From NCBI GenBank assembly GCA_039096225.1, contig JBBPEB010000009.1:1550001-1614000 (forward strand): a stretch of 64,000 bases of DNA, written 5' to 3'. Within the stretch, counting starts at the first letter, position 1. Each line of letters opens with the position of its first letter. This document shows positions 19 through 28,589 of the stretch, piece by piece. The stretch comes from Blastocystis sp. Blastoise (lineage: Eukaryota > Protista > Bigyra: Opalinata). The position numbers and the translations under genes were made by a program. A model generated the notes under the pieces. The model searched no databases, was not told the DNA's origin, and saw nothing but the letters and a program-made list of their open reading frames with translations.

Positions 19-1186
19 CTATTCGGGATTAAAAAGCTCATCAATATCGATATTATCACTGTTCATGAATGAAGACTCAGAAGAATCAACATATGGAAGA
101 TTACATCTTATGAATAATATTTTTGCAGTTTTACTGAAACTTAAACGGTTTCTAAGCTTAGTTTGAACAAGAAGTAACTGTGACCATACTCTCTCGGAAA
201 AACCACTCGACGAAGGAGCATCATCAAGTAGCAATGCTAGAGAAGACAAGCTCTTCTCAAAGAAATTTACAGTCTGCCAGTACATCTTATTGTTATTATA
301 ATTTAGGCAGTTGATAATTTGATTTTGTATGAAAACTCCATCATTATGTGCATAATTAAGAAATGATGAATACAACTCTCTATTATCTGATTCTTGTAAA
401 TATTCCATTATAGCTTGCACATCATCTGGATTATTTATTATTTCATTTTTATGTTGAATATTAAGGTAATATGCCAAAATGTACAATTGGTGAGTATAAA
501 AGTATTTTCTTTTGGATAAACACCTATCAAATATTTCCTTATACATAGATTCATTACTAACATGTATAAACTGTTTATAATAAAAGTAGACATCTGAAAT
601 TGAAGATCCATTAGCTTCAAGCTTTTCAACAGAATTTTTACATATAACTAGAATATCAAATATAGAAACACAAGACTTCCAAAATGAATTATCGTTTAGA
701 CTAATAATAAAATCTTTATTTTTTTTCTTCTTTATGTTTGGATCCATAATTTTGCAATTGATCTTTATGATCAAGTAGCCATTTTAATGAAGAGTACTCT
801 GACCACCATCTGGTCGGGCAATACAATTTAGGAGTATTATCACAATAGTTATGACCAGCTTCAATACATAATTCAACTCTATCAGCAACATGATATTTAA
901 AATATATAGAAATAGCATTAACTTTATTAACTATATTCATTGGGGAATAATAGTGTCTAGGAAAGTCTTCAGAACTAATAAAGTCACCTAGTAACAGCTC
1001 TCCCATATGTGAAGCACATCCAAAAAAATACAATTCGTTAATATTATTACAGAAAGAATCATGACAAGAAACTAATGGCAGTATATTTTCATTAGACATA
1101 TCATCAGTTTTGGTGTCTACATATATATAAATAATTTAACTAATAACGATATGTATAAATAAATTAATATAAATAATGAAAGCAAT

Positions 1187-1217
<31 letters not shown>

Positions 1218-1867
1218 TGGTTCATATTGTGGTATCTGTGAACTATTATTTCTTAATTGATTCTGAGCGTTTCTGATTTTTTCAATAAGTTTTTCACGAC
1301 TTGATATATTAGCGGCACAATTATCAGACACTATTCCCTTGACTTTATTCACACCTATTCTTAGCATACAGTCATATATAACATATGCAATTGAATCTGA
1401 TGTCTCACCACAATATGTAACATTATATATGCAATACAAATATGGCTTATGTTCTATAATTGCAACAACATTTAGAAATTTCTCTTGATTTATATTAGTT
1501 GTACCTGTAATAATATAATAATATAATAATATAATAATATAATAATATAATAATATAATAATATAATAATATAATAATATAATAATATAATAATATAATA
1601 ATATAATATTATAATAATATAATATTTTAATAATATAATATTATAAAAATATAATAATATAATAATATAATAATATATATACCATCAAATGATAGATATA
1701 CTCTAGTTGCATTTCGAATCCTTTCTTCCACTATTTCGTAAATCTTATAGAAGGTGTTATCCAAGTGTCTGTTACTTAACGAATGCCTTTTTGGTAACTT
1801 GTACTGTGAGTTAATATCACTAAACATTTGAATAAGGTATTTGTTCTCAACTTGCGAAAAAGGTGTA

Positions 1868-1918
<51 letters not shown>

Positions 1919-2113
1919 TTGTAGTTAAAAAATAGCACAATAGATCATCATAAAATCTATCAACACTCATTTCATTATCAACTGGTATCATAGTATTAGA
2001 TTCACCTAGATGATCAACCTGCTCAATGTCTAAGTTAACGTGATGAATACGTAACTTATATGCAGTTTGACATAATGTATTTTTGGTACTAGATAGCGTG
2101 TCTTTATGATTAT
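19..2113 (-). pseudogene. hAT-family DDE transposase, 3' part (multi-exon), disrupted by PLV insertion and a +1 frameshift
   Basis: Spliced motifs: NTPFSQVEN..YKLPKRHSLS, YLSFDG (D1), GIVSDNCAAN (D2), GCASH (CxxH), PTRW, PSSSGFSERVWS..RNRLS (catalytic E and dimerisation domain). GT-AG introns, e.g. 1869-1918. Frameshift at the T8 run 719-726 between ORFs 716..1099 and 19..774. Confidence 0.9.
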
Positions 2114-2233
2114 TAATTCTTCCGTTCTTCGAACTGCAGAAGGGGGTATGCAAACCCCGCATAGAGTCTGCGCGACGCGCGCAGCCATAAGCGGGGAAGT
2201 CATCCCCCCTTTTTGTTCTCGACGGAAGAATTA
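2114..2233. repeat. GC-rich imperfect terminal palindrome (hairpin), left
   Basis: Nested pairings TAATTCTTCCGT/ACGGAAGAATTA, GAAC/GTTC, AGGGGG/CCCCCT, ATG/CAT, CCCCGC/GCGGGG, CTGCGCG/CGCGCAG; apex at 2175-2177. Confidence 0.9.
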
Positions 2234-2805
2234 ATAACATTTCTGAAGTAAAATAACCATGGGAGTGTAGGGTAGTGTGTGTGTGTATTTATTTTTTCCC
2301 ATGTTTATTTATTTTTAATTTATTTGTGTTCCGATTCCAACGTGAAACGTAAAGTGATCAAGGAGAAACTCATAGTAATCATAAAAGAAATAAAATACAC
2401 ACTCACACCCTCCCCTTTACAGGGAATATTCATGGGAAATGGCTCCATCGTTGGTAAAGTGAGTAAAATAATCACGGGAATACAGAAAGAAATACGAAAA
2501 GAAGCACAGAATGTGCTAAATAAACACACACCCCGACCCTCCCTTTATATAGAGAAAAGATGAAATGGATGGTTCTATCTAAAAAGAAATAATAGAAATA
2601 ATCACGGGAATATATAAAAATAAAAATGTATGTATAGTGATCAATAAATAATATAAAAAGTCATGATAATCATAAAAAAATATATAAAAAGAGTAAAGTG
2701 ATCAAGGTATGTATTTATAGTGGGTGAAAGAAAAGCTGGTGGTGGTGTGGTCTTGTAAAAAGATGTACCCACCACCACGATTATAACGAGAGACTTTTGG
2801 AAACA
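2114..2805 (+). repeat. Left terminal inverted repeat (~692 bp)
   Basis: Reverse complement of 26434-27126 with about 10 substitutions and one 1-bp indel, counted by eye. Confidence 0.97.
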
Positions 2806-2834
2806 TGAGCGACCGATATGGAAAAATATAAATT

Positions 2835-2882
2835 TTCTAGAACATTCTAGAACATTCTCGAAACTTCTAGAACATTCGAGAA
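2835..2882. promoter_or_regulatory. HSE-like nGAAn array (10 units) upstream of YR1
   Basis: TTCtaGAAcaTTCtaGAAcaTTCtcGAAacTTCtaGAAcaTTCgaGAA, ~90 bp before ATG 2971. Confidence 0.75.
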
Positions 2883-2970
2883 CATGAGAATCTTAGATAT
2901 TTTATTTTGATTTTCTTATGTATTATTCTTTTGAAAATAGAAGTTTTAGAGATTCTACTTGAGAAAATCA

Positions 2971-3906
2971 ATGAAAAATACAAATTATGACAAGTATCTT
3001 TTGGTTATACAGAATTCAAATTATTCTGATATTTGGAAAAAACGTTTAACCAATTATTTCAATTTATATATTTTCCCATTACCATTTAAAAAGTTCTCAG
3101 AATTCTTAAAGAATCCTTATTCATTCATGGATTATATGGTAAATGAACGTAAAATCAAAATTAGTCCAATGAAATCGTTATGTGAATTGATATTATTTAT
3201 TATACGTAATGTTTCTTCATTAAATAAAGAAGGTATTTTAAATAAATGGTGTGAATTTTATGTGATTATTAATGCAATGTATGAAAAATATCTGGATAAT
3301 AAGAAACGCACTTTGATTCAAGATCTTATTAAAGATGGTATTACGACTCCATATTTACATGAATATCACGATAAATTAGAAAATTATAATCCATTACGAT
3401 TAATATTAGATTTTTACTCCTATCTTCCTCCTGCTCGTGCTGATTATGCTCAATTATTCATTCTAACTCCAGAAGATACTATTGATCCAGCTATTCATAA
3501 GAATTATATTGTTTATGATAAAGAGAAACACACTGGTTCTATTCTATTAAATGATTATAAAACTGCTGGTAAATACTCTACAATTCAATTAGATGCACCA
3601 AAAGAATTGATTGAAGATCTAGAATTACTCTTAAAAAGAAATCCAAATCGTAAATTTATATTTGAATCTTCTGTAAGAACTGGATTTACTACTAAAGCAT
3701 TTGATTGGTTTGTGAATAAGCATTTAAAACAAATCCATCCAAAATTAACCATTAATGCATTAAGAAAATTATATGCTACAACTACAACCAATACATTCCA
3801 AGATATAGAAAATTCTGCTTCTGCTTTATGTCATAATGATTATACACATATTAATTCTTATGTATCTTTAGAAAATAATAATTTATTTAAAAAATTAATT
3901 GAATAA
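2971..3906 (+). CDS. Tyrosine recombinase/integrase 1
   Basis: Catalytic motifs PPARADY (R), LNDYKT (K), INALRK (xxxR), LCH and INSY (H and Y). Confidence 0.85.
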   Translation: MKNTNYDKYLLVIQNSNYSDIWKKRLTNYFNLYIFPLPFKKFSEFLKNPYSFMDYMVNERKIKISPMKSLCELILFIIRNVSSLNKEGILNKWCEFYVIINAMYEKYLDNKKRTLIQDLIKDGITTPYLHEYHDKLENYNPLRLILDFYSYLPPARADYAQLFILTPEDTIDPAIHKNYIVYDKEKHTGSILLNDYKTAGKYSTIQLDAPKELIEDLELLLKRNPNRKFIFESSVRTGFTTKAFDWFVNKHLKQIHPKLTINALRKLYATTTTNTFQDIENSASALCHNDYTHINSYVSLENNNLFKKLIE

Positions 3907-3972
3907 TTTTTAATATTTGTTTTGTTTAATAATTTTAATAACTAAACAACTAGTAATAAAAGGATATAAAAA

Positions 3973-4347
3973 TTAATTAAAAGGTAAGAAAGATAGATTA
4001 TTATTATTATTTTGATATTGATTTTGTTGTTGATTACTTTTCATAGTTGGCATAAACATATTATTGGGTTGAATAAGATTCTTATCCTCTTGATATTGAT
4101 TCTCATTCTTCATATATTGTTTATCCAATAGCATTTCAAGACGTTGATGAATCACAGGATCATCTATATAAAGTAACATGTTTCTACAATAACTCAATTG
4201 CAAATCACTAAGATTCTTGTTGTTATTATTATTTAAAAATTGTTCTAATAGATTCGCTATTTCATTCTTTTTGGATTTAATTCCTTCTTCTTTTAGATTC
4301 TTCATCACACGACAAAAATAAGAATAACTAAGATATTTCTTGTTCAT
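3973..4347 (-). CDS. Viral hypothetical protein (124 aa)
   Basis: ATG-initiated ORF preceded by a CCAAT box and an HSE-like array. Confidence 0.65.
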   Translation of the reverse strand: MNKKYLSYSYFCRVMKNLKEEGIKSKKNEIANLLEQFLNNNNNKNLSDLQLSYCRNMLLYIDDPVIHQRLEMLLDKQYMKNENQYQEDKNLIQPNNMFMPTMKSNQQQNQYQNNNNNLSFLPFN

Positions 4348-4442
4348 TATTTAAATTAGCCAATGATTAAACAAAACAAATTAATTATATAAAACACTAA
4401 TATAATAAATTAAAGATTCTACAAATAGAGCCAGTTCAAAAT

Positions 4443-4465
4443 GAATGTTCTAGAATGTTCTAGAA
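4443..4465. promoter_or_regulatory. HSE-like array (5 units)
   Basis: GAAtgTTCtaGAAtgTTCtaGAA, ~95 bp upstream of the ORF starting at 4347. Confidence 0.65.
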
Positions 4466-4605
4466 CGTTTCTTGGACATATAAAAGTAAAGTAAAATATA
4501 TATAATAATAAGAACAATTTCAATAACTGACAGTATTTCATTTACATTCTCTAAAATTTCTGCACTACGATCTAAGTAGTAATTGCCAAATCGTTTCTTT
4601 GTCAT
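4450..4605 (-). CDS. Small viral membrane protein (51 aa, one TM helix)
   Basis: ATG at 4605; hydrophobic stretch ILSVIEIVLIIIYILLYFYM followed by basic residues; own upstream HSE array and downstream TGTTTTGTT. Confidence 0.5.
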   Translation of the reverse strand: MTKKRFGNYYLDRSAEILENVNEILSVIEIVLIIIYILLYFYMSKKRSRTF

Positions 4606-4669
4606 TATAGTATTAAATAATAAACAAAACAAATTAATTATACAAAATATTAATATAATAAATTAAAGA

Positions 4670-4687
4670 TTCTAGAATATTCTAGAA
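4670..4687. promoter_or_regulatory. HSE-like array (4 units)
   Basis: TTCtaGAAtaTTCtaGAA upstream of the ORF starting at 4605. Confidence 0.6.
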
Positions 4688-4691
4688 TGTT

Positions 4692-5285
4692 TTAACAAGG
4701 CATAAGATTTCCATTAGAAAGTAAATAAAGTAAAGAATAATAAAAGCAACCATTTGCATTACTTGTAGTTTTTTGGTGTTGAATAGGATTATATTGAATA
4801 TTATGATTTTGAATAAATGATTTTGAGAAAGTAGGTTCATTTCCTAATGATGAATAGTGTTCTATGTTTTTATTACCATTATAAATAACAGCTTCAAAAT
4901 GACCATTATAAGGATCACTAGGACTTTCATGAAAGATCATATTAAATTTAGTTTGATCTTGATCTATATTTTGTTCAAAATCATCATAACTATTATAATA
5001 ATTATAAGATTGAGAATTTGTTTTATTTAATTGTTTCATAACATTTTCAGCACGATCACAAGCAACAGAAGAAGTAGGTTTATTTAAATAAGCATAATTA
5101 TATAATTGAGATATTAGAGAATTTGGTATATTACAATATTGAGATAGAGTTTGCTTAAAATTATCAGGGGATCTAGGAGTAACATGACGAGTTTTATCAG
5201 ATATAATAGGATTATCACAATTCATTGAATTTTGAATAAGTTTTTCATCTTTACTCTTTACCAGATCCCCTCCCCTGAGTTTTTT
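4692..5285 (-). CDS. Adenain-like capsid maturation cysteine protease, probably expressed as a -1 frameshift fusion to the upstream core protein (first in-frame ATG at 5225)
   Basis: GHFEAVIY..EHYSSLG..YNPIQHQ..NGCFYYSL matches the H...(D)SxG...Q...C pattern of adenain/PLV proteases; the ORF-track start at 5312 is TTG. Confidence 0.8.
   Translation of the reverse strand, partial: KKLRGGDLVKSKDEKLIQNSMNCDNPIISDKTRHVTPRSPDNFKQTLSQYCNIPNSLISQLYNYAYLNKPTSSVACDRAENVMKQLNKTNSQSYNYYNSYDDFEQNIDQDQTKFNMIFHESPSDPYNGHFEAVIYNGNKNIEHYSSLGNEPTFSKSFIQNHNIQYNPIQHQKTTSNANGCFYYSLLYLLSNGNLMPC
5164..5285 (-). promoter_or_regulatory. Putative -1 programmed ribosomal frameshift signal (A AAA AAC plus stem-loop)
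   Basis: Heptamer 5285-5279 is correctly phased in the core ORF; 8-nt spacer; GGGGAUCUGG (5270-5261) pairs with CUAGAUCCCC (5176-5167), extended by GAGUAA/UUACUC and AUGA/UCAU. Confidence 0.75.
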
Positions 5286-6886
5286 GATAACATATACTTC
5301 TTTTCTTTCCAAAACATTTGCTCACCTCTATCTAATATTTCATTATTATCCATCTTCTGTTTTATTGTTTGTAATTGTTTTAAATCATTTTTAGCTACCT
5401 TACGTTTCCTTTGTTCTACTTGTGCAGGTATTACAAAATCTGTATAAGCTGTTACCAATGGAGGTAAATCACCACCTCTTTTCTTTTTAGCTTCTTTTCC
5501 TCTTCTCATTCGTTCTAAGAATTCTTCTTTACTTAATTTAACTCGACCACCATAACCTCTACGTTTAGCTCTTCTTGCAGCTATTCGTTTATCCCTTTCA
5601 TCTTCTTTCCATTTTCTATCGACTTTCTCTTTATCATTTTGAGGGAAACCATAAATCTTATAAGGATAACTTTGTTCATCACGAGACATTGGCTTATAAG
5701 GTTGAGGAGGTTGAGGTTGAGGAGGTCTAACAACTTGTTGTTGTGGAGGTGGTGGAGGTTGAACAACGGGTTGTGGATGTAATCTATCATCTTCGTCAAG
5801 AGCATCTTGCATTTCATCAGCTACATCATAATATCCTTCAAACATCTTATTTATAGTATTTCCTGAACCTATTTGTTTTTTCATTTCATTTAATGCTTGT
5901 TGACGTTTTAATTTTTCCATTTCAAATTCCATATCATTTAATTCACTTGACTGTTGTGCCAAATGTGTATCATAATAAGCTTTTCTACCTTTAGCAAAAG
6001 AATCCATACCTTTATCAACTACACCTAAAAGAGCTGGTGCATAATTCATAACTCCATCCCAGAATCCACCACCTCTTTTAACTCTTAATATACCATCACC
6101 ACTTTCAGCTGAATCTAAATCTATATATTTTGGTATAATTGAAGGTCTTAACATTCTTCTTAATTTTGGATTCTTAATCATTTTCTTATTTTTAATTGCA
6201 TTCATAATTGCTGAAGCAACAGATATAGGAATCTTTCCACCACGTTTAATTTTATGTTCATAGAATCTTTTGAATTCATCATCAAGATCATGATGACCAT
6301 CACCAACATATTGAGCTAAAATAGCTAATGCATCACGAGCTTTTCTATTAGCTTTTTTATCTACAATAGCATCTCTTATATCTAATACATTTCGTTGATA
6401 CATATCTTTTACTTTATTTTTAATTGCATCACCAATACCAGAACCTTGATTATTCTCTAATTTATTGATTTCTGATTTATTTGGAATAATTCCTCTACCA
6501 GATTTACGTCTTGGTTTACATGGATTTAATACTTTATATTGACGATCTTCACCATCTATTTTATCTTCTTCTGGACCAGCTGCTTTCATTACACCTTTAC
6601 CTGCTGCTCTAGCACGAATTAAAGCACCATTTCCTTGTGGAACAGCATCTTTACCAAATGTTTTAGAACGATCTACATAATCATCTTCTTTACCATCATG
6701 TATTTCTTTACTTTCTAAAGTAGACACAGGCATAGATGAATTTGGACCTATTTCATGAAATATTGGATTATATTGATCCATTTTATGTAATGGCTGTGTA
6801 TTATATCGCCTATATTCTTTTCCTGTTGAAATTAAATTCATACCAAAAGTACCAGGACTTGGCATTCCTAAGATACAACTTTGCAT
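5258..6886 (-). CDS. Putative virion core polyprotein (basic; multiple xGG and GxG protease sites; amphipathic helix)
   Basis: KRGG x3, YGG, GNGAL, GKGVM, GRGII, GSGIG, GDGIL, GEGIW; Lys/Arg-rich segments; FWDGVMNYAPALLGVV follows RGGG. Confidence 0.7.
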   Translation of the reverse strand: MQSCILGMPSPGTFGMNLISTGKEYRRYNTQPLHKMDQYNPIFHEIGPNSSMPVSTLESKEIHDGKEDDYVDRSKTFGKDAVPQGNGALIRARAAGKGVMKAAGPEEDKIDGEDRQYKVLNPCKPRRKSGRGIIPNKSEINKLENNQGSGIGDAIKNKVKDMYQRNVLDIRDAIVDKKANRKARDALAILAQYVGDGHHDLDDEFKRFYEHKIKRGGKIPISVASAIMNAIKNKKMIKNPKLRRMLRPSIIPKYIDLDSAESGDGILRVKRGGGFWDGVMNYAPALLGVVDKGMDSFAKGRKAYYDTHLAQQSSELNDMEFEMEKLKRQQALNEMKKQIGSGNTINKMFEGYYDVADEMQDALDEDDRLHPQPVVQPPPPPQQQVVRPPQPQPPQPYKPMSRDEQSYPYKIYGFPQNDKEKVDRKWKEDERDKRIAARRAKRRGYGGRVKLSKEEFLERMRRGKEAKKKRGGDLPPLVTAYTDFVIPAQVEQRKRKVAKNDLKQLQTIKQKMDNNEILDRGEQMFWKEKKYMLSKNSGEGIW

Positions 6887-6961
6887 TTTTTTATTTCAAT
6901 TATAAAATTATTTATAAACAAAACAAATATATTAATAAAAAATAAATTTAACATTAAAAAT

Positions 6962-7555
6962 TTATAAATTAGTTAAATCAATAATAGTATCATTACTATT
7001 AGTATTCTTCGTAGATTTATCGATGACTTTAATAGAACGAGCATATAAACCAATATAATACTTGTTATTATAACGATGAATACCATGTATTGTAAATAGT
7101 ACTTTACATAACGTATTTGGTGGAATATACTTTTCACGTATTTCTTCGTAAGTTAACTTAGGATCTTTACCGATATTAATCTTCTTATCTCTTTTATCAG
7201 TGATATCAATAGTAACATTCTTCGATGCATTAATAGGTACTTTAATTGTAATCTTATATTTACCATTATCCATACGTACAAAATTAACAATATCACCATC
7301 AGGACATAATTCACATAATTTACGATAAAGTTCTTTATAAGCAGTTAAGAATACTTGATTATCATCTTCAATTGTTAATAAAGTCCATTTATCACGTGTA
7401 ACAATATAACCAAATAAACATGGTGTAGCATCAGTAGAAATACATACACGATGATTATTATTTAAAAGAACAGCATTTTCTTTGGTGTCATCCCATTGTA
7501 AATTAAAGTTAGAAGTATCAAGAATAGTAGGTTTTTTAAATTCAGTTGAAGACAT
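6962..7555 (-). CDS. Putative OB-fold single-stranded DNA-binding protein
   Basis: Beta-rich pattern YKITIKVP..IPPNTLCKVLFTIHGIHRYNNKYYIGLYARSIKV resembles viral gp2.5/NCLDV-type SSBs; HSE array upstream. Confidence 0.55.
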   Translation of the reverse strand: MSSTEFKKPTILDTSNFNLQWDDTKENAVLLNNNHRVCISTDATPCLFGYIVTRDKWTLLTIEDDNQVFLTAYKELYRKLCELCPDGDIVNFVRMDNGKYKITIKVPINASKNVTIDITDKRDKKINIGKDPKLTYEEIREKYIPPNTLCKVLFTIHGIHRYNNKYYIGLYARSIKVIDKSTKNTNSNDTIIDLTNL

Positions 7556-7632
7556 TTTTAGTTAAGTATTTAGTAAAAATATAAGTATTTTAATACTAAT
7601 ATTTTACGATATTCTTTTCAAATGAATCAATT

Positions 7633-7680
7633 TTCGAGAAGGTTCGAGAAGGTTCTAGAATGTTCGAGAAGGTTCTAGAA
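7633..7680. promoter_or_regulatory. HSE-like array (10 units) upstream of the SSB-like gene
   Basis: TTCgaGAAggTTCgaGAAggTTCtaGAAtgTTCgaGAAggTTCtaGAA. Confidence 0.75.
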
Positions 7681-7873
7681 AAAAAAGAACACTTGAATAA
7701 TCTAATGGAAACATTTTAACGGAATCGAACCATGATACTGTGGTTACATATTTCTTTAATAGATCCATTAGACCATTCAAGAATTCTATTTGAAACTATT
7801 CTATTCTCCATTTAAACTTTGTGTAATTAATTTAAAAAATAAACAAAACAAAATAATTAATTAAATAAATAAA

Positions 7874-8401
7874 TTAATGATCAAATATTTCAGACATAGA
7901 AGGAATAGAATATTCGGATAATAATGAAACAATTTCTTTAGAATCATCATGAATCTGTTTTAAATCTTGTTTCTGACTTTCAATCTTTGTTTTTAAATGA
8001 TCAACAGTACAATAAATACTATTTAATATATTATCAGCCGTTTCCATAGTTTGAAATAAAGATTCGAATTGACTGGATATATTTGTTAACTCCTCATTTG
8101 TAAATAATAAAGCTTGCTTATTAGGATTTGTATTTACTTGATCTTGAAATTGTATTGGTTCATTGTTAACCGAATGATATCTATCTGGATTTTTAGATAC
8201 GTAAACATCATTGATTGGATGAATTTCTTGAGGTGGATCTTCAAACATGATTTCGTCACGCGAATTAAAACAGAAATCATTATCATTGGGTAAAGCCATA
8301 GGATTTTCAGAAACACTATTTTCAAATGGATTCAACAAGGGGGATATCATGGCTTGACCGAAAGGGGATAAACTGGCAGAAAGACTATCAGGAATTTCCA
8401 T
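7874..8401 (-). CDS. Viral hypothetical protein (acidic/Pro-rich N-terminus, coiled-coil C-terminus)
   Basis: 175-aa ATG ORF with downstream TGTTTTGTT motif. Confidence 0.7.
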   Translation of the reverse strand: MEIPDSLSASLSPFGQAMISPLLNPFENSVSENPMALPNDNDFCFNSRDEIMFEDPPQEIHPINDVYVSKNPDRYHSVNNEPIQFQDQVNTNPNKQALLFTNEELTNISSQFESLFQTMETADNILNSIYCTVDHLKTKIESQKQDLKQIHDDSKEIVSLLSEYSIPSMSEIFDH

Positions 8402-8509
8402 GATTATTTAAACCTTCAAAAGTATTTTTATACAATATATTAAATATACTATTTTTAGTGTACAGTTCTTCATTTCAGTTGCTAACAAAAGCCTATTGCT
8501 TCCAGCTGG

Positions 8510-8688
8510 AAAATAAGCCAATAAAATAACTTATTTCGTATGACACATCGTCGTCATCGTCTAATTGTGTTTTACTAATTTTTTTATCCAATCAGATTAC
8601 AGATGCCAACTATACTCGTCATTGAAACACAAATAAAAAATGCTAAGTCGACAAAATTAGCCAATCAAATGAACCTTCTAGAACATTC
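8510..8688. promoter_or_regulatory. Divergent promoter with three CCAAT boxes and a 4-unit HSE
   Basis: AGCCAATA (~8516), TCCAATCA (~8587), AGCCAATCA (~8659), GAAccTTCtaGAAcaTTC (8671-8688). Confidence 0.55.
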
Positions 8689-8799
8689 CATAGAGATTCT
8701 ACACTGTCTCCTAGAATATTTAATATTCCATTTAAATGTATTATTTATTTCATTTTGATAAATACAAATTTTCTCTCTGTAACGATATTCGCGATTATA

Positions 8800-9423
8800 A
8801 TGCAATTTAATCTTTCTGCTGATTCCCGTAAATGTCTTCAAACTGTTCGTATGGAACTTCTAAAGAATTCTAAGAAGGCTGTTGAAGTTCATAAGAATGT
8901 TCTTCGTGATATTGATTTACATCAGTCTCAATTGAATAGAGAAAAGAATCTATTGGGTATTGCAAAATCTAAAGAACGTCTTGCTTCTTTCGAAGTCGAA
9001 AACTATAGATCAGCTTTAAAACGTATAAACGCGGTTATTAAAGGTCTTGAAGATTATGAAGAATTCGCTGCTGATATTTATACTCAACAACTTAATGAAG
9101 AACAAGATATTCAAGATATTATCAATACTGAAGATCTTTTAGAAAGTGATAGAACTACTATTTTATGTTCTGAAGATTCTAAAGAACATTCGAATTCTAA
9201 AGATGATGATTTTGATATTATGAAATTCCATATGGAAGATGGATTCCTTTATGATGAAAAAGGTAAAGTTTATTCTTATGAAGTTGTTCATGCTAAGAGT
9301 ATTAACAAGATTAAAAGAGATCCTTCAAAACAAATGTATTTCTGGGATGGTATTTTATATGATAAGAATGGATGGCCTCATTCATGTACATATATTAATA
9401 GTCAAGAACCAATTGAAATTTAA
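8800..9423 (+). CDS. Viral hypothetical protein (coiled coil plus two C-terminal DGxLYDxxG repeats)
   Basis: ATG at 8800; EDGFLYDEKG and WDGILYDKNG. Confidence 0.75.
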   Translation: MQFNLSADSRKCLQTVRMELLKNSKKAVEVHKNVLRDIDLHQSQLNREKNLLGIAKSKERLASFEVENYRSALKRINAVIKGLEDYEEFAADIYTQQLNEEQDIQDIINTEDLLESDRTTILCSEDSKEHSNSKDDDFDIMKFHMEDGFLYDEKGKVYSYEVVHAKSINKIKRDPSKQMYFWDGILYDKNGWPHSCTYINSQEPIEI

Positions 9424-9533
9424 TTTATTTTCTTGTTTATTTTTCTATTTTTACTTATAAACTTGTAAAAAATCATTGAAAATTGTTTTGTTTATTGTAT
9501 ATACATTTAAAACACTAAAGTATAAAAATGATG

Positions 9534-9671
9534 TTCTAGAAGGTTCTAGAAGGTTCTAGAAGGTTCTAGAACATTTAAAAATATAAAGTAATATTTACTA
9601 TTATAGAATGTTCTAGAAGGTTCTTGAATGTTCTAGAAGGTTCTAGAAGCTTCTAAAACTGACTTCTAGAA
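9534..9671. promoter_or_regulatory. Two HSE-like arrays (8 and 10 units) upstream of the primase-helicase
   Basis: (TTCtaGAAgg)n at 9534-9571; GAAtgTTCtaGAAggTTCttGAAtgTTCtaGAAggTTCtaGAAgcTTC at 9606-9653. Confidence 0.78.
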
Positions 9672-9739
9672 TCTTTAATATATTATTTGTTTTAAATGTT
9701 GTATTATAATTATTTTCATTATTTATAAGTCAAATAATC

Positions 9740-12742: not shown

Positions 12743-12786
12743 ATTTATATTTATTTTTTACTATAAAAAGTTGTTTTGTTTTAAAA

Positions 12787-14583: not shown

Positions 14584-14650
14584 TATTAAAAATTAAATTA
14601 TTTATAAACAAAACAAATTTATTATTAATATTTTATAACATTTCATAGAA

Positions 14651-15142: not shown

Positions 15143-17578
15143 TTATATATAAGAGATAGTTAATAAAACAACACAAGGATAATTACATGTTATAAAGAAC
15201 ATATTATCATGAGGTAATAACTTTAATAATTTACGATTACAATAATAAACATTCTTATTAATCTTATTCGATATACCTTCATATTTAATACCATTAGAAT
15301 AGTAATAAGGTAGATTTGTAGTATCAATAACATGAATATTATTCTCATATTCATTAGTAAAACATCTTAATGAAATAGGATATAAGTAATCAGTGGATTG
15401 ACCATACACTGATATAATTTGTATATTTGTTAAATATTGATATCCATAGACATTGGTTTTCTTCAATTCATAAATTAAATTCTTACTCGTACTAAAATCA
15501 CAATATACTTCATCATAAGCTTTGAAACGTATATCACTACCATTAGGTTCACATATATTACAAATGATATTTCCTTTGAATAATTCATCAAATCTTAAAT
15601 CTATATTATGATCAATTGTGATTGGAGAATTTATATTACTATAAGTAACATATTTATCAGATAAAGGAAAACTAAATGTAGGATAATATGATCCATTTAT
15701 ATATCCAGTACATAATTTAGATGCATTTGCTTGGATTGTATCTGTATCATTTTGAATAATAATATCTTTTAAGATCTTATTTTGGATATTCAATGTAGGA
15801 TATTCAGCATAGAATTGTGTGTCTGCTGTTTGACAATTCAAACATAATTTCTTAATAGTTTCACTTGGTTGAATCGTATCGACTGTATCTGAGAATTCTA
15901 AGAATCCTCTTAAAATACAATTATTATTAAAATTCACATATTGTTTATTTTTATCAGTATATCGTATAATAATATCTTGTATTGTATTCAAATAAGGAGA
16001 CACATTAATATTCATAATATCATGAAATTCATTATTGCCTTTATAATTATTCACATTGAATGAATATAAAGAATTCTGACTATTATCTACTATATTCGAT
16101 TGAGCTATTAACATTCCTTTTGGACGACTACTATCAATATTATGAATACCATAATTAATAATTTCATCATGACCTAATTTATTATAACCTAAGATTTCAC
16201 CTAATTCTTGAGCTTGAGAGAAATCTATATGATAACTATCAGTATAACACTTATAATTACCATCTAAATCAAGTGTATTCAAATCAGCTATTTTGTCTGG
16301 TATTAATTGTTTACCATAAGATACATACCAAGCAAAACATCCTTGTTCATCATAAACTAAATCAGGACGTATATTATGTAGAGCACCACGATACTTAAAT
16401 AAGGAGTGCTCTATATCTGTAGCTGTAAATGTGAATGACGTAGAATCAGTACCTTTACAAGATAAATATATTATATATCCATCCTTATTGTCCATAGTCT
16501 GAGTATCTTTGGATATACTTAAATAATCCGTATAAATTGTATTATTGATTGAACTTTCTAATAATTCATAGAATTTGTTTTCTGTGTAATTTCCAGGAGG
16601 AACAGTGAATGTAGTTTCATGAACACCATCATAACCACTCAATTGTCGAACAATCATTGTATTATATCCATCTTCCACAAAGACTGTTCTTTTAATTCTA
16701 TTTAATGTAATTTCCTCTTGAAGTGAAGTATATGTCAATGTTTCTGAATCTTCAAATAAGCCAGTGAATAATTGTTTTTCTAAACTGAGTATATTATTAC
16801 TTGACAATTGGAAATAAAATTTATGTTCATCAGCTAATACACATTTCATAATTCCATTAGAACCTTGTGTTGGAACAATATAACTTGAATGATCACTCAC
16901 ACCATCAGTAAAGAATTCATTCAATTCATAGATTCCTGTTGATGTAACAGGAACATTATAAGAAGTTAATTGAGGTCGATATATGGTTATAGTATCATCA
17001 TCATATCTCATCATTAAACGATTAAATTTATCACCCCATTTAGCTGATACACAACATACAGCTATCCACCAAAACTCTATATCCGTATAAGTACCTTTTG
17101 GAAAGTAAAAACCACGTCTTTTATTATAAATTGTAATTTCACAATACCAATCATCTCTATCAATGGTTATTGTTGGGGCTTCATTAATTTTGACAGTGTG
17201 ATCAATATCAGGAGAATCTTTTATTACTGGTCTATCACATACATCAAAATGACATAGTTCTAATAATTGTGGAATTGAATAATTTTTCTGATCTAAAGTG
17301 ATTGTATATACGGAACTATTACCATTGACACGAGTATTTATATATTTGAATATTTGTGTTTTTGTGAAAGTATCAAATAGAGGCACACTTTCACTACCAA
17401 TTAAATTAAGATCAATATAAGAAATGATATTTTTAGTGATATCAATAGAATTCGATAAATGTATATTGAATTGATTATCAATACAACGAACATCAATAGG
17501 GACTACATGTGTTTTAATACGAGTATCCTTCTCTTCTAATGAAGTCTGTTCTTCTTGATTATCTTCATCAAGTTCCAT
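15143..17578 (-). CDS. Large penton-type minor capsid protein with repeated insertion domains
   Basis: Penton motifs TITLDQKNYS, FPKGTYT, VPPGNYT, LGEILGY, LIAQSNIV, IIIRYTDKNKQYVNFNN; extra C-terminal ~250 aa. Confidence 0.7.
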   Translation of the reverse strand: MELDEDNQEEQTSLEEKDTRIKTHVVPIDVRCIDNQFNIHLSNSIDITKNIISYIDLNLIGSESVPLFDTFTKTQIFKYINTRVNGNSSVYTITLDQKNYSIPQLLELCHFDVCDRPVIKDSPDIDHTVKINEAPTITIDRDDWYCEITIYNKRRGFYFPKGTYTDIEFWWIAVCCVSAKWGDKFNRLMMRYDDDTITIYRPQLTSYNVPVTSTGIYELNEFFTDGVSDHSSYIVPTQGSNGIMKCVLADEHKFYFQLSSNNILSLEKQLFTGLFEDSETLTYTSLQEEITLNRIKRTVFVEDGYNTMIVRQLSGYDGVHETTFTVPPGNYTENKFYELLESSINNTIYTDYLSISKDTQTMDNKDGYIIYLSCKGTDSTSFTFTATDIEHSLFKYRGALHNIRPDLVYDEQGCFAWYVSYGKQLIPDKIADLNTLDLDGNYKCYTDSYHIDFSQAQELGEILGYNKLGHDEIINYGIHNIDSSRPKGMLIAQSNIVDNSQNSLYSFNVNNYKGNNEFHDIMNINVSPYLNTIQDIIIRYTDKNKQYVNFNNNCILRGFLEFSDTVDTIQPSETIKKLCLNCQTADTQFYAEYPTLNIQNKILKDIIIQNDTDTIQANASKLCTGYINGSYYPTFSFPLSDKYVTYSNINSPITIDHNIDLRFDELFKGNIICNICEPNGSDIRFKAYDEVYCDFSTSKNLIYELKKTNVYGYQYLTNIQIISVYGQSTDYLYPISLRCFTNEYENNIHVIDTTNLPYYYSNGIKYEGISNKINKNVYYCNRKLLKLLPHDNMFFITCNYPCVVLLTISYI

Positions 17579-17649
17579 ATTTTCTAATTTATAAAATAAT
17601 AATTTATATTAATTTTATTTTATTTATTAATATTTTTTTATTAAAAAAA

Positions 17650-19122
17650 ATGAGAATCTTAAGAATTAAAGATAATATTCCTATTCAAAGTGATACTGAT
17701 ATTCTATCAAGTCCTTATATCTTTCAATATCATTGGACTAATGTGGATAACACTTATATCAATTTCAATCAATCCTATTTGGATCTTACTGTCAAGGCAA
17801 CTGTCACAGATAAAGCTGGACCAGTTTCTGTTTATTTAGATGAAACAGGTACTTCTGTTAGTTTCACCTATGATCAATTATGTCAATATTTCTTGGATCA
17901 ATTAGTTCAAAAAGCTAATATTTATTCTATTATTGATTCCACTGATGTTGAAATGGTTTATACTTTACCTGATGGATCTGATCGTGCTTTGAAATATGAA
18001 GAAAACTGTACACATGCTTCACGTGGTCGTAAAATGATTTTATTAAAAGATATCAGTAAGAATGATTTAGAAAAATCTATGTATGGTGAAGATTTATCTG
18101 CAGATACTTATGAATTGAATTCTATTCGTTATATACGTGCACATCCAAATGAATCTATTCATATTGCTATTCCTTTATATCTCATTAGTGGTTTAGGTGT
18201 TGATGGAGATTCTTTAATATTAACTAAACATTTCAATATGCTATTTAGAACGAGTACAATTGAATCCTTAATTGATAATAATATGAGTATTTATTTCAAG
18301 AATGGTGGTGCTAAATTATCAACACAATGGTTACATCTAACTGATGAAAAATGGTTTAAGACATTTGAATTGGAATCAGCTACTATGAATTTAATGACTT
18401 ATAAAGATATTCAATTCCAAACGAATGAATTATATAAAACTATACCTACATGTATTCAAGTCGATTATCAAAATACAAGAATAACTAGTGATCATTTCAA
18501 TATCAATAGAGCTTTACCATTTATACCTGAATATATATTATACTGGTTTACAAATGGGTATAGTTCAACAACTATTAGTAATGTAGCTAGTCCATCTGTA
18601 TGGCCTAAATATCAAAGTTGTTTGATTGGTGATGTTCAAATGTTCCCTCAAACTGAATTCCCTACTCAAATGTATTATCATAATCTTACTACTAAAGGTC
18701 ATGTCTTCAATAATGAAGAAACTGCTAGTTTATCTTGTCCTAATAAAAATCTATATTGTTTATGGGCTGATAATTCAAATCCTGAAACTATTCTTAAATA
18801 TGATGAATGGATTAAACATCCTATTTATATTATTCCAACTAAAGCATTAATGAATATCCAATCAGATAGTGGTATAGAAATGAATTTTGATTGTAATCTA
18901 GATGTCCATGATATTGAATATGGTCATGCTGATTCATCTACTGTTCCTGATGGATATACATGTACATATAATGAAACTACTAAAATATGGACACCTGACA
19001 CTGGTGCTTCTTATGCCGTTGCTTCTCATGCTGGTATTTATAAACATATTAATACTGAACTAAATGAGAAGCATCCTTATACATTACATATGATTGCTGT
19101 ACGTAGTGTACGTGATATTTAA
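17650..19122 (+). CDS. Major capsid protein paralog A (double jelly-roll, inferred)
   Basis: ATG at 17650; YINFNQSYLDLTV and IAIPLYLISGL motifs typical of Polinton/PLV MCPs; collinear with 19299..20522. Confidence 0.75.
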   Translation: MRILRIKDNIPIQSDTDILSSPYIFQYHWTNVDNTYINFNQSYLDLTVKATVTDKAGPVSVYLDETGTSVSFTYDQLCQYFLDQLVQKANIYSIIDSTDVEMVYTLPDGSDRALKYEENCTHASRGRKMILLKDISKNDLEKSMYGEDLSADTYELNSIRYIRAHPNESIHIAIPLYLISGLGVDGDSLILTKHFNMLFRTSTIESLIDNNMSIYFKNGGAKLSTQWLHLTDEKWFKTFELESATMNLMTYKDIQFQTNELYKTIPTCIQVDYQNTRITSDHFNINRALPFIPEYILYWFTNGYSSTTISNVASPSVWPKYQSCLIGDVQMFPQTEFPTQMYYHNLTTKGHVFNNEETASLSCPNKNLYCLWADNSNPETILKYDEWIKHPIYIIPTKALMNIQSDSGIEMNFDCNLDVHDIEYGHADSSTVPDGYTCTYNETTKIWTPDTGASYAVASHAGIYKHINTELNEKHPYTLHMIAVRSVRDI

Positions 19123-19298: not shown

Positions 19299-20522
19299 AT
19301 GGAAGGATTCCCAAGACAATTCTTACCTTCAAAGGCAAATCAAACTATTAAACCTGTACAAATTCCTATTCTAGTTTCTACTAGTCAAGATTTATTAAAT
19401 CAACCTTATCCATTTGAATTCTTATATAATTCAGTTGATAGTCCTTTTATTGATTTCAGTAATTCATTCTTAGAACTGAATTTCAATATTACAACAAATG
19501 CAGCTACAACTAGTTCTGTTGTACAACATTCTAATATCTATAGTATTATTGATAAAATTACTACAGATCTTACGTTTGTATCTCCTACGGGTCAAGATAT
19601 TCTTATTAATTATTCTGAATCTTCTATTGAATCCAGTAAAGCAAGAAAATTTGTTACTATTAAAGAATTAAGTAAAGATGAAATTGATAAATCTATGTAT
19701 AGTATGACTGAATGCTTATATAATACAACATTAAGTAGTATTGCTGGAATGCAAAGTTCTACTAAAGCTCAAGTTATTATTCCTTTATCTCTTATTACTG
19801 GTCTTGGTACATTTGATTGTGCTATTAAAGTAAAATCTTTGAAGATGCAATTCGTTACAAATTATTTAAAGAATCTATTTACAGGTACGACTAAAATCAC
19901 TGCATTAACATTTGATCGTGTTTATATTCATCTTCAACAAATCTATGATATTAATTTTGGTAATGATCCACGTGCTTTGATTAAATGTATTCCTAATAAT
20001 TGTCAAATATCTGCATTTACTACACCTGTTTATTCAGAAACATTCTCAACAGCAGGTAAACCAACTCCACAACAATTCTTATCCAATAGAAGTGTTGTTT
20101 TCGTACCTGATTACTGTATGCTATATTTTACAACTCAAGAGAAGAGTATGATTCCTATTAAGACTGAATTATTGAAGATGTGTCAATTCCAAATTGGTGG
20201 TCAAAATATCTTACCTAAGACGGATTTCCCTACTACGTATAAAACAACGAATCCATCACAAATTATTCCTAATGCTATGCTTTATAATACTTGGAGATGT
20301 AATAGTCATCCTCAATCTCCTTTAAATGGTGAAAAGTGGTATGAACAACCTATTTATATATTCCCTATTTCAAGTGTTGTTGATGTCAATACTCGTAGTG
20401 GTTGTGAAGTTAATATCTCCTTATTAACTGAATATAATGGTGCAAATATTACTAGTGGTACTTATACTTTATATGCTCATTTTATATTTGTTAAATTTGT
20501 TAGAGATGGTGCAACCAATTAA
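19299..20522 (+). CDS. Major capsid protein paralog B (double jelly-roll, inferred)
   Basis: FIDFSNSFLELNF, VIIPLSLITGL, QFQIGGQNILP; size and position next to the penton and ATPase genes. Confidence 0.8.
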   Translation: MEGFPRQFLPSKANQTIKPVQIPILVSTSQDLLNQPYPFEFLYNSVDSPFIDFSNSFLELNFNITTNAATTSSVVQHSNIYSIIDKITTDLTFVSPTGQDILINYSESSIESSKARKFVTIKELSKDEIDKSMYSMTECLYNTTLSSIAGMQSSTKAQVIIPLSLITGLGTFDCAIKVKSLKMQFVTNYLKNLFTGTTKITALTFDRVYIHLQQIYDINFGNDPRALIKCIPNNCQISAFTTPVYSETFSTAGKPTPQQFLSNRSVVFVPDYCMLYFTTQEKSMIPIKTELLKMCQFQIGGQNILPKTDFPTTYKTTNPSQIIPNAMLYNTWRCNSHPQSPLNGEKWYEQPIYIFPISSVVDVNTRSGCEVNISLLTEYNGANITSGTYTLYAHFIFVKFVRDGATN

Positions 20523-21359: not shown

Positions 21360-22397
21360 ATGGTGAATAAAATAAATCCATTAAAAGAAACACGTAAAGG
21401 ATGTGGAGTCTTAGAATTTAAATATGGAAAATCACATCATAAAACATATGAATCAAAATTTATATTGATTATTGCAAGAACATTCTCAGGAAAATCTTTC
21501 TTAACTGTGAATCTCTTATGTTCTATGGATCTTAAAAATAAATATAAACAAGTCACAGTAATTTGTCCTGATGCATCCAATAAGAATGAATGTTATACAT
21601 CCTTTCAAGATATTTGTGAACATGCTGGAATTGATTATAAATGGTATGATTCTGTAGATGATAAATTTAAAAAGATTAAAACTGTTGATGAATTAGTCAA
21701 TACATATAAATTACCAGAACATAATTTTATTGTATTGGATGATATCTATCCATTATCTAGACAAACCAAACAATTGATTGTATCTATATTATCTAAAGGT
21801 CGTCATTATAAACAGAATGCTATTATATGTCTTCAAAGTCATACAGATGTCACGAATCAATCTATATTAAGTCAAGTATCTCATTTCTTTATTAATAGTC
21901 AAATCTTAAAACGTGATCCTGGATTCTTACCAGATAAATTAAAGATTATGCCATCAAATCTAAATGAAATTCTTACAGATGAAGAATTAATGAATGATCC
22001 ACATCAATTCTTTATGTTAAAACAAGGTAGTGATGATTTAACAATATGGACTAATCCTGATTGTGGTAGTAAACAGAATGTATATAAGATGGTAAAGAAA
22101 AGGAAATGGACAGAAGAAGATAGTGAAAAAGAGAAACGAGAAGAACAAGGTGAAGTATCAGGTAGTGGTATTAAACGTCCTAATGAACATATATCTACAT
22201 ATGAAAAGAAAATGAAGAAGTTTTTACCTGTTGAAGAAGAAGTCTCATTGAAAGGTATTGAACGAGATGAAAAAGATAAACCTAAAGAATCCATCTTACA
22301 AATCATACAAGATCAAATCATACAAGATAGTCAACGACGCATTTTTAATCCTTATTTAAATAAAAAACATTATTCTGGTTATCCTTCTTTTCATTAA
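21360..22397 (+). CDS. A32-like (FtsK/HerA) genome packaging ATPase
   Basis: Walker A IARTFSGKS, Walker B FIVLDD, SKGRHY Arg finger, ICLQS sensor. Confidence 0.92.
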   Translation: MVNKINPLKETRKGCGVLEFKYGKSHHKTYESKFILIIARTFSGKSFLTVNLLCSMDLKNKYKQVTVICPDASNKNECYTSFQDICEHAGIDYKWYDSVDDKFKKIKTVDELVNTYKLPEHNFIVLDDIYPLSRQTKQLIVSILSKGRHYKQNAIICLQSHTDVTNQSILSQVSHFFINSQILKRDPGFLPDKLKIMPSNLNEILTDEELMNDPHQFFMLKQGSDDLTIWTNPDCGSKQNVYKMVKKRKWTEEDSEKEKREEQGEVSGSGIKRPNEHISTYEKKMKKFLPVEEEVSLKGIERDEKDKPKESILQIIQDQIIQDSQRRIFNPYLNKKHYSGYPSFH

Positions 22398-26267: not shown

Positions 26268-26433
26268 AATTGATATACATCCCGCCACATAAAACCACTG
26301 GAACACAATTAGTTTCCCCAGTTTCCCCAATATAATTGTGTTTTTGTGTTCCAAAATCCCTCATTTTTACTATTTTAAGCAATTTGATTGGACAATTCAC
26401 GATGACGCATCCTATTTCCATAACGGTTACCCT

Positions 26434-27126
26434 TGTTTCCAAAAGTCTCTCGTTATAATCGTGGTGGTGGGTACATCTTTTTACAAGACCACACCACCAC
26501 CAGCTTTTCTTTCACCCACTATAAATACATACCTTGATCACTTTACTCTTTTTATATATTTTTTTATGATTATCATGACTTTTTATATTTTTTATTGATC
26601 ACTATACATACATTTTTATTTTTATATATTCCCGTGATTATTTTTATTATTTCTTTTTTAGATAGAACCATCCATTTCATCTTTTCTCTATATAAAGGGA
26701 GGGTCGGGGTGTGTGTTTATTTAGCACATTCTGTGCTTCTTTTCGTATTTCTTTCTGTATTCCCGTGATTATTTTACTCACTTTACCAACGATGGAGTCA
26801 TTTTCCATGAATATTTCCTGTAAAGGGGAGGGTTGGACTGTGTATTTTATTTCTTTTATGATTACTATGAGTTTCTCCTTGATCACTTTACGTTTCACGT
26901 TGGAATCGGAACACAAATAAATTAAAAATAAATAAACATGGGAAAAAATAAATACACACACACACTACCCTACACTCACATGGTTATTTTACTTCAGAAA
27001 TGTTATTAATTCTTCCGTCGAGAACAAAAAGGGGGGATGTCTTCCCCGCTTATGGCTGCGCGCGTCGCGCAGACTCTATGCGGGGTTTGCATACCCCCTT
27101 CTGCAGTTCGAAGAACGGAAGAATTA
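26434..27126 (-). repeat. Right terminal inverted repeat (~693 bp)
   Basis: Mirror of 2114-2805; the mirrored ORF pairs 2279..2563 and 26677..26961 confirm the alignment. Confidence 0.97.
27007..27126. repeat. GC-rich imperfect terminal palindrome (hairpin), right
   Basis: Inverted copy of 2114-2233 with one substitution. Confidence 0.9.
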
Positions 27127-27281
27127 TTATATTCTTTCGATAGATGATCAATATAACGTGTAAAATTTCTAAGATGTTTCATAGAGCAAATAGGACAAGT
27201 GTATAATTTTGTTTTCTCATCATAGCACGCCAACTTTTGAATACATTCATGTATAGTAGACATCAATATGTGTTTGCTCAT
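27127..27281 (-). pseudogene. hAT transposase 5' part (BED-type Zn finger), separated from the rest by the PLV
   Basis: MSKH...LYTCPICSMKH...YIDHLSKEY joins in frame to NHKDTLSS at 2113 once the virus and one target-duplication copy are removed. Confidence 0.8.
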
Positions 27282-27481
27282 TTGAAAATAATACAAAAAT
27301 ATCAAGCAATAATCAAGCAATATGATAAAAAATAATTATTTTAAGAAAAATAACAAAATTATAGATAAAAATCACGGTTATTCGTGTAATAGGATGTAAT
27401 TTGAAAAATTTCAGATAATTACGCAAAATTTTTCACATTTTTGCGTAATTTGTAACGGCGTAATTACAGGTTCCATCTCTA

Positions 27482-28589
27482 GAGGATAATATAATTCTTG
27501 TTTTACTTTATTTTTGTAATAATAATTTTTATTATTCAAAATTACTTTTAGTGATTTAGTAGCATGTTGATAAGCAGGGGATGACAAGTTTTGTTATAAG
27601 AAAGTGAATTATATTGATCAATTCAGAAATTGAGTTGCTAAAATTAGTATAATTCAACGAAAAGATTGATAATATAATATAGATAGTCTAGTAGTATGGT
27701 TTATAAACATAATAAATACATTATGTTTTCAATAATTACCTATAGTTTAGTTATTTTTAGATATTATGTGGTTTTCAATAGTGCATTTCTTAGATTATTG
27801 TAATATAATTAATATTTTAAATATTAGTCGGCCCAATATTGAAAAATAATGATAATGCTGATTAGCATCTCTGCTTGAAAAGAGAATCAATTACTCTCAT
27901 CACAAAATCTTATATAACAATAGTGTAGTAGCAATACCAAATAATAAGTTATTTTTCACATATGAAGTTCAGATCAACTACATAAAAATGGATTATACAT
28001 TAAATAATGGGAATGTAACTTTTTATATTATTGGAGCATAGTAAAACTAATAATAACTTTAAGATATGTGGCATATAAATATAATATTATTTCATAATTA
28101 TGTCTGTTCATAACCTATATTATCATCTATTTTCATTATTATTCGTAACTAATAAAATATTTCATGAAATATCTATTTATTTACGTGTATTTCTACAAAT
28201 GAAAAGCAGATTTGAAAAGAAGCAGATCTTTGAAATTTAATTATTTTTAAATAATATTACATTAATAATACATATATCTAATATAAATATAAGGTTATAA
28301 ACAATATATTGCTAATCAAATATCTAAAAAACTCAAAATGCTGATTATGTTCAGGATTATATGAATAAAGGTTACTATAAGAAGGAATACATATAAATTT
28401 GAATATGCTCAAATATGTCATCCTTCTCTATTTGCAAGTAAAACAATCAATTATGGAAATTACCCTTATTTTAAACAAGAAAATGTATTTCCCCTAATTA
28501 ACATATTATGTAGAATTGAAAAATACAAACTAGAGTGTTTAATTAATCTAATTACAAAAATAAAGTAAAACAAGAATTATATTATCCTC
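27482..28589. mobile_element. Non-autonomous TIR element (MITE-like, ~1.1 kb)
   Basis: Perfect 39-bp inverted repeats at 27482-27520 and 28551-28589 (GAGGATAATATAATTCTTG...); no long ORF inside. Confidence 0.7.

Follow-up and report, generated by a model that had tools for sequence, protein, structure and literature searches.

Palindromes at the ends of TIRs have been described in endogenous virophages (subtypes 1, 2, 5 and 6) and in a Polinton-like virus (PLV; subtype 4) of Halocafeteria seosinensis (bioRxiv 10.64898/2026.07.28.741278, July 2026). According to the accessible part of that preprint, they occur preferentially in non-pPolB virophages and PLVs, are tied to particular rve integrases (the example given is 52 nt long), and were found by a screen for arms of at least 20 that allowed up to 4 mismatches and a gap of up to 10; hairpin-priming is proposed there for such ends, as an untested idea. 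In poxviruses, mismatched hairpins within long TIRs are made by cruciform resolution and needed for packaging, a function which the mismatches themselves could serve (PMC8956199, accessible sections). These hairpins are AT-rich, their resolution depends on the A22 Holliday-junction resolvase acting at a CRS promoter element, and the viruses do not integrate (same source).

PLVs are defined, in the available text of PMC10120064, by an integrase (tyrosine recombinase, YR, or rve) together with a replication gene (pPolB or primase-helicase). Those which combine a YR with a primase-helicase have been reported in association with entomopoxviruses (PMC11296320), in Tetraselmis (S2x; 10.1101/2025.10.09.676808) and in the cryptophyte cluster C1 (PMC12220804), and true TSDs are rare among them (10 of 232 in cluster C1; PMC12220804). 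A terminal palindrome is not described in the accessible text of these three papers, where the string “palindrom” is absent from all of them and “hairpin” from 10.1101/2025.10.09.676808 and PMC12220804. The available text of 10.1101/2022.07.28.501842 gives a linear genome with incompletely assembled ends, with no “hairpin” and one unrelated “palindrom”, and that of PMC11788076 adds nothing further on PLV ends.

Other systems join a YR to folded DNA ends. Phaeovirus EVEs of Ectocarpus carry an integrating YR and a telomere resolvase, a second enzyme of the YR superfamily; integration involves minimal core homology, and fold-back reads point to a hairpin-ended linear form (PMC13236599, accessible part). 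These are giant viruses, and their recognisable protelomerase linearises an internal telRL-like site (a 6-bp palindrome), not the integration ends. In integrons, the attC crossover lies near the base of the stem. The attC site, an imperfect hairpin, is recombined by a YR through a single strand exchange, and replication resolves the product (PMC3458562, in part). It differs from the ends described below in belonging to bacterial cassettes with one site per circle, and no sequence likeness is claimed. Euplotes Tec3 is said to have palindromic ends. It encodes a YR (PMC3212892, in part).

Here, we analysed a window of 64,000 nucleotides from Blastocystis sp. Blastoise (contig JBBPEB010000009.1, positions 1,550,001 to 1,614,000). 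An element of 25,013 bp with 18 main ORFs lies at 2114-27126, and each of its ends is exactly an imperfect palindrome (Table 1).

Table 1. Coordinates of the integrated element, its ends, its main genes and the flanking host sequence (positions in the window)
Feature	Position	Strand	Remarks
Left TIR	2114..2824	.	711 bp
Right TIR	26415..27126	.	712 bp, 97.8% identical to left
Left terminal imperfect palindrome (hairpin), 120 nt	2114..2233	.	Perfect 12-bp basal arms 2114-2125, 2222-2233
Right terminal palindrome	27007..27126	.	Same isomer, one substitution vs left; from fold and TIR alignment
TTAT, left copy of 4-bp junction repeat	2110..2113	+	Extends left stem to 16 bp when included
TTAT, right copy of 4-bp junction repeat	27127..27130	+	Directly outside right end
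Degenerate dyad, candidate YR core site	2222..2249	.	11-bp arm, 6-bp spacer, 11-bp arm matching 7/11
Mirror copy of degenerate dyad	about 26991-27018		
Tyrosine recombinase 1 (YR1), 311 aa	2971..3906	+	Adjoins left TIR
Tyrosine recombinase 2 (YR2), 598 aa	12787..14583	-	Cre/Xer-like fold in residues ~30-385 (model)
Primase-helicase, 1000 aa	9740..12742	+	PHROGs phrog_1156 DNA primase, E 2.4e-9, residues 574-749
Major capsid protein paralog 1	17539..19122	+	ORF 527 aa; true start probably later
Major capsid protein paralog 2, double jelly-roll	19299..20522	+	Predicted structure
Packaging-type P-loop ATPase	21360..22397	+	Within capsid block; PHROGs phrog_2666, E 1.2e-10
Candidate minor capsid (penton) ORFs	20619-21290 and 15143-17578		
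5' part of interrupted host gene or hAT-like transposon	27127..27482	-	Zinc-finger (C2H2-like) N-terminus
3' part of interrupted hAT-like transposase gene, intron-containing	19..2113	-	Dimer_Tnp_hAT E 0.081, weak

The element is a PLV of the YR and primase-helicase type. It has a double-jelly-roll (DJR) major capsid protein (MCP), a packaging ATPase, and a YR integrase together with a primase-helicase, and its 25,013 bp and TIRs of 711 and 712 bp agree with the 15-30 kb and the TIRs of hundreds of bp of PLVs. As regards Polintons/Mavericks in the strict sense, no pPolB was found, nor an rve match with a 5-6 bp TSD. For capsid paralog 2 (model pLDDT 75.7), the top row of Foldseek is the Sputnik MCP (E 4.6e-13, TM 0.45, 13% identity), followed by the capsids of iridovirus, PR772, PRD1, PBCV-1 and mavirus with similar TM and identity, and in the Atlas structure rows DJR-like clusters (PF21738) ranked above those of the Sputnik type. 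The two tandem capsid paralogs share 28% identity (E 5e-39). Family profile searches returned no maturation protease among the element ORFs. The ATPase is probably A32-like, and the primase-helicase is probably D5-like, to judge from its motifs; searches against PDB sequences with the primase-helicase and with YR1 were uninformative.

The two recombinases barely align with each other (E 0.059) and look unrelated. YR1 matches Pfam Phage_integrase at E 0.084, under the cut-off, and its look-alikes are Preplasmiviricota clusters (score 0.98), one of which carries PF00589 on 16% of its members. Five close relatives keep the residues R, K, R, H and Y, presumably the catalytic ones to judge from YR motifs. 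For YR2, the model is of low confidence (pLDDT 52.6) and most resembles Cre (Z 11.2, rmsd 5.1, 240 aligned) and XerA (Z 10.3), with the protelomerase TelA below both (Z 5.8, rmsd 7.6, 256 aligned). Foldseek gave no match for this model at E <=0.001 (best XerA, E 0.1), and family searches found no telomere resolvase in the element proteins.

None of the 18 element ORFs matches a polB or rve family in the family searches, of which Pfam missed the capsids and YR2 as well, and the pPolB motif is absent from the 13 ORFs scanned, that is, those other than the five assigned as YRs, capsids and ATPase. To judge from the sequence, the case for an absence of pPolB from the element is strong but not absolute. 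Because neither the motif (0 of 13) nor a family match (0 of 18) was found, protein priming is unlikely, and with a protein-primed polymerase undetected the element needs another way of copying its ends.

Some further features of the gene complement are given as side observations. The C-terminal pattern of a 197-aa ORF (6962-7555, - strand), which has no family match, recalls the T7 gp2.5-like ssDNA-binding proteins of large DNA viruses, and a protein of that kind would suit strand-displacement replication. In a 177-aa ORF (4692-5225, - strand), a His motif followed by a Cys motif recalls, by eye, a permuted OTU-like cysteine protease. Moreover, arrays of alternating GAA/TTC triplets with 5-bp spacing lie at 2835-2882, 4443-4465, 4670-4687, 7633-7680, 8671-8688, 9534-9653 and 26230-26267, with 43 matches, all within the virus, against 0.71 expected. 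They match the consensus of the eukaryotic heat-shock element, and they stand upstream of YR1, the primase-helicase and other genes, which suggests a stress-inducible provirus.

On either strand, each of the terminal 120-mers forms a single long hairpin (DNA MFE folding, four folds). For the left end the values are -33.2 (+) and -37.5 (-) kcal/mol with z of -6.95 and -7.47, for the right end -37.8 (+) and -33.5 (-) kcal/mol with z of -8.98 and -6.10, and for each of the four folds 0 of 200 shuffles folded as well. A scan of the + strand (6388 windows of 120 nt, step 10) has a mean of -6.8 kcal/mol (sd 3.4) and a best value of -34.5, and its six best folds all overlap the two hairpins. The earlier note, made from the letters of this stretch, had placed GC-rich imperfect hairpins of 120 bp at both termini, and this proves correct, with exact coordinates and z between -6.1 and -9.0. 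Its description of a perfect 12-bp basal stem, internal loops and a GC apex likewise agrees with the folds of the termini, which it had proposed as a check. Above the perfect 12-bp stem, the hairpin has an offset stem of 3 bp and a purine/pyrimidine stem of 7 bp. These are followed by 3 bp, a 4x4 loop, 6 pairs rich in G-C and a further 2 bp, and at the apex a GC stem of 7 bp closes on a loop of 3 nt. The basal 12-mer occurs at 2114, 2222, 27007 and 27115 only. All of the 41 pairs in the left top-strand fold are Watson-Crick (25 G-C and 16 A-T), and 40 of them are common to the bottom-strand fold. At 53%, the GC content of the hairpin exceeds that of the remaining TIR sequence (32%), of the element body (26%) and of the host DNA (22%).

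Both ends carry the same isomer, as had been claimed: the one difference between the 120-mers is at base 2200, a position left unpaired when the left end folds. With two ends (n=2) this is a coin toss, with no bearing on flip/flop. Rfam gives three weak matches within 1900-3000, all under the gathering score and none on the hairpin. A transcription-end hairpin of the virophage type was considered and set aside, for no gene is directed into the left hairpin. In IMG/VR, the arm-gap-arm pattern finds four stretches, all mid-contig, with folds of -8.5 to -18.1 kcal/mol and unrelated interiors, which we ascribe to chance. Of three sequencing runs, one has related sequence (share 0.28); its contigs cover 27 of 30 bins of 1925-14800, the bin of the hairpin being uncovered, and show a single opposite-strand joint (14579/14676, depth 2) far from the element ends, and the other two runs contribute no contigs. 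None of these results says anything on topology.

In two further accounts the fold has no function of its own. The palindrome could be a decayed, functionless relic of an old fold-back accident, in which strands annealed at a broken end, and persist through TIR homogenisation; accidental annealing is given as an alternative in the available text of the Halocafeteria preprint (10.64898/2026.07.28.741278). However, mismatches are confined to the interior, the basal 12 bp pairing perfectly; the segment has twice the GC of its surroundings and is not copied from the adjoining TIR sequence; and recent activity of the family is suggested by its about 20 near-identical copies. We consider such a relic very improbable. 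The palindrome could also act as double-stranded DNA, its boxes forming a dyad array to which the recombinases or a packaging protein bind, with the fold a by-product of symmetry. Its stems are indeed spaced by mostly symmetric loops (4x4, 1x1), and two YRs and several ORFs without assigned function could bind there. But the arms shift register (ungapped self-complementarity is 44/120), pairing continues up to a 3-nt loop, and the boxes are unlike one another and GC-rich, all of which suits base pairing better; a binding array seems to us improbable, if slightly less so than a relic.

If the ends are taken as symmetric (2114 and 27126), direct repeats of just two lengths flank the element, 1 bp and 4 bp (TTAT); two random 4-mers of the host are identical in 1.5% of cases. 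The TIR ends and the flanking TTAT repeat place the host junction exactly at the base of the outer arm, where the earlier note had put it. Just one of three reading frames is open beside the junction on each side, and if the host gene was intact the duplication is of 4 or 1 bp, because continuity of the gene needs 1 modulo 3. On the same assumption, a blunt insertion without duplication breaks the host reading frame and was rejected. The 5' part of the interrupted minus-strand gene has a C2H2-like finger, and its 3' part looks like a hAT transposase, with weak Pfam support. As a separate observation, a candidate transposon end lies near 27482, and the virus sits inside hAT-like transposase coding sequence.

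The left TTAT is the exact 4-mer that would precede the outer arm in a folded end or in a head-to-head junction. TTAT or ATAA makes up 5.6% of host 4-mers, and at the right junction only 2 of 4 flanking bases fit the folded-end continuation. Just past the junction repeat, host positions 27131-27139 agree with the viral outer arm at 8 of 9 bases, in a register shifted by two. Tested as a 15-mer, the likeness of the host sequence right of the site to the viral arm is marginal, with 134 of 4000 random host sites as good; an earlier 9-mer test gave 4/73,740, with the site itself counted, and is less fair.

At the inner base of the hairpin, a degenerate dyad is a candidate YR core site, judged by its letters. 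Its 6-bp spacer is centred on the junction 4-mer, which reads TTAT on the lower strand, and the dyad straddles the inner base; 1.3% of element or host positions match the dyad arm as well as the observed 7/11. Both the TTAT continuation (5.6%) and the inner-base dyad (1.3%) were noticed post hoc in AT-rich DNA and are suggestive only. Generally, a YR site has inverted arms of 11-13 bp and a spacer of 6-8 bp (PMC3212892, accessible part). This canonical geometry fits the element if its two outer arms abut, as in a hypothetical circle, and the inner base fits it partly (7/11). The left and right 6-bp overlaps are identical at 5 of 6 positions. The 12-bp basal arm likely has a second job as a recombinase arm, because the element has two tyrosine recombinases, of which the earlier note made no use. 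The geometry of the dyad fits a YR which cuts the folded end at its base, and a circle with abutting outer arms fits equally.

Such an excised circle would make the abutting outer arms a YR attachment site, with perfect 11-bp inverted arms and a 6-bp overlap, and its GC interior would fold transiently, as a cruciform or displaced strand, to serve the primase-helicase as an origin or to act as an attC-like substrate. A circle needs a stable palindromic junction of 1.4 kb, formed by the abutting 711-bp TIRs, which is a poor stable form, and it leaves the same spacer and second arm at the inner base unexplained. In its favour, the arms of 11-12 bp and the 6-bp overlap match the usual YR site (PMC3212892, in part), the 5 of 6 agreement of the overlaps and the host frame test both fit, and the host 15-mer resembles the viral arm, at the marginal level and out of register by 2. 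Cryptons leave direct repeats of 4 or 6 bp (PMC3212892); the inverted repeats of YR and primase-helicase PLVs have been proposed as att site and origin (PMC11296320), and YR-PLVs are generally presumed to circularise (PMC12220804), as far as the accessible text of these papers goes. We regard the circle as the main rival of our leading reading (below), and as slightly less probable. One form of it, with a single palindrome at the junction, is excluded: a simple crossover would strip one end, and both ends keep the palindrome.

Our leading reading is that the free genome is linear with terminal hairpins, which we put forward tentatively, as somewhat short of an even chance. The palindrome likely folds into a mismatched hairpin that would cap this linear genome and whose base a YR would likely cut. 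In this process, the primase-helicase, with a polymerase borrowed from the host or a helper virus, would copy round the hairpins and produce head-to-head junctions. Each junction would extrude as a cruciform with its branch point on the TTAT spacer and four recombinase arms around it, and one YR would resolve it into hairpin-ended monomers. When the end is folded, the dyad at the hairpin base would stay intact duplex. Integration would start with a YR cut at the edge of the spacer, in the strand that enters the outer arm. The 5' end so freed would be joined to a TTAT target in the host DNA, and copying of the hairpin once it had unfolded would leave a full palindrome at each end.

What speaks for hairpin ends is that the GC-rich, wholly Watson-Crick stems are strong on both strands in a background of 22-26% GC, that the junction lies exactly at the outer arm, that the flanking 4-mer is that of a folded end, and that the inner-base dyad matches at 7/11. 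The improbability of protein priming also counts in favour, as do the precedents of the poxviruses, the phaeoviruses, the attC sites and the Halocafeteria elements. On the other side, the right junction fits at only 2 of 4 bases, and a circle with a 6-bp overlap explains both junctions fully. The low-confidence model of YR2 ranks Cre and Xer above TelA. Poxvirus hairpins are AT-rich, whereas that of the element is GC-rich. A true 4-bp target duplication by joining of the 5' end would also need a cut stagger opposite to that of ordinary YRs, which counts against the reading. The proposal of the earlier note, a linear free genome with fold-back self-priming whose integration opens the hairpin at its base, is thus upheld in part: no protein-primed polymerase is detectable, the junction is at the outer-arm base, the stems are GC-rich and Watson-Crick, and there is a YR-like dyad, but the junction letters fit a circular YR intermediate equally well.

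The hairpin and circle readings may be successive stages, since excision as a circle can be followed by linearisation, and two YRs would suit this; a short-lived excision circle may also exist alongside the hairpin-ended form. The strictest version, a DJR virus with poxvirus-style mismatched hairpin telomeres, in which the YR site at the hairpin base both resolves the junctions and integrates the linear genome with no circle, is in our view unlikely. In the literature searched, direct integration by a YR from a hairpin-ended linear genome is a route undescribed for integrating eukaryotic viruses.

In order to compare, we set the element beside the described systems. Like the Halocafeteria elements, it has a palindrome inside the TIR and beside the target duplication, a stramenopile host and non-pPolB replication. 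Unlike them, it has two YRs and no rve match, and its palindrome is 120 nt long with several internal loops; the near-perfect arms and the association with rve seen there were not found, and by inspection the palindrome, with its ungapped 44/120, would fail the screen applied in the accessible text of that preprint. The idea of hairpin-priming for such ends is already published, and what is new is the long, mismatched, YR-linked form with a candidate recombinase site at its base. With poxvirus telomeres the element shares an incompletely paired hairpin in long TIRs, at the very TIR end, as well as a related capsid fold and a packaging-type ATPase. AT-richness is not shared, for the element hairpin has 53% GC and 25 of its 41 pairs are G-C, and the YRs are the sole candidates for resolution. 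The published PLVs with a YR and a primase-helicase, as far as their available text goes, resemble the element in gene set, size, TIRs, a YR in place of rve and the lack of pPolB, and they differ from it in that it has two unrelated-looking YRs and two capsid paralogs. The phaeoviruses are alike in YR integration and in a second YR-superfamily enzyme.

The element belongs to a family of many copies. Identical or near-identical proteins are labelled Blastocystis sp. Blastoise, and clusters at 90% identity hold 19 helicase, 21 YR2, 15 terminal-ORF, 11 ATPase, 10 YR1 and 9 capsid sequences, on contigs of at least 13 different lengths among the matches listed. By these counts the assembly probably contains about 20 near-identical copies, and the family looks recently active. 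Remoter copies, with ATPase identity of 45-69%, carry the same label. A search with the capsid found 87 proteins, the majority in ENA and Logan assemblies with identities of 55-63%, and several capsid or YR relatives lie on contigs of 20-24 kb. Those of 23.7-24.1 kb would be about the length of one complete genome if its TIRs were collapsed. YR2 has few relatives (7 out of 1.84 billion representatives), and queries with the ATPase, capsid and YR1 gave no related loci in IMG/VR or in JGI contigs (viral, metagenome and genome).

The capsid and YR family of the ENA and Logan assemblies is a candidate for a virus group not yet described. In the Blastocystis literature searched, supplementary datasets aside, no description of the family was found: the accessible text of PMC10690189 (Blastocystis) contains none of “polinton”, “capsid” or “maverick”, that of PMC10120064, whose supplementary datasets could list related capsids, has no mention of Blastocystis, and that of 10.1101/2024.03.23.586382 gave no description of such a family either.

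In summary, the virus family is apparently undescribed and present many times over in a single assembly; its about 20 near-identical copies offer some 40 ends for a count of flip and flop, while the divergent relatives on metagenomic contigs of ~24 kb allow a covariation test. The heat-shock-element-like arrays suggest a way of inducing the virus. With this element, terminal hairpins would be known from YR-type as well as rve-type elements, and the mismatches of its hairpins would link the ends of PLVs to the telomeres of poxviruses and asfarviruses.
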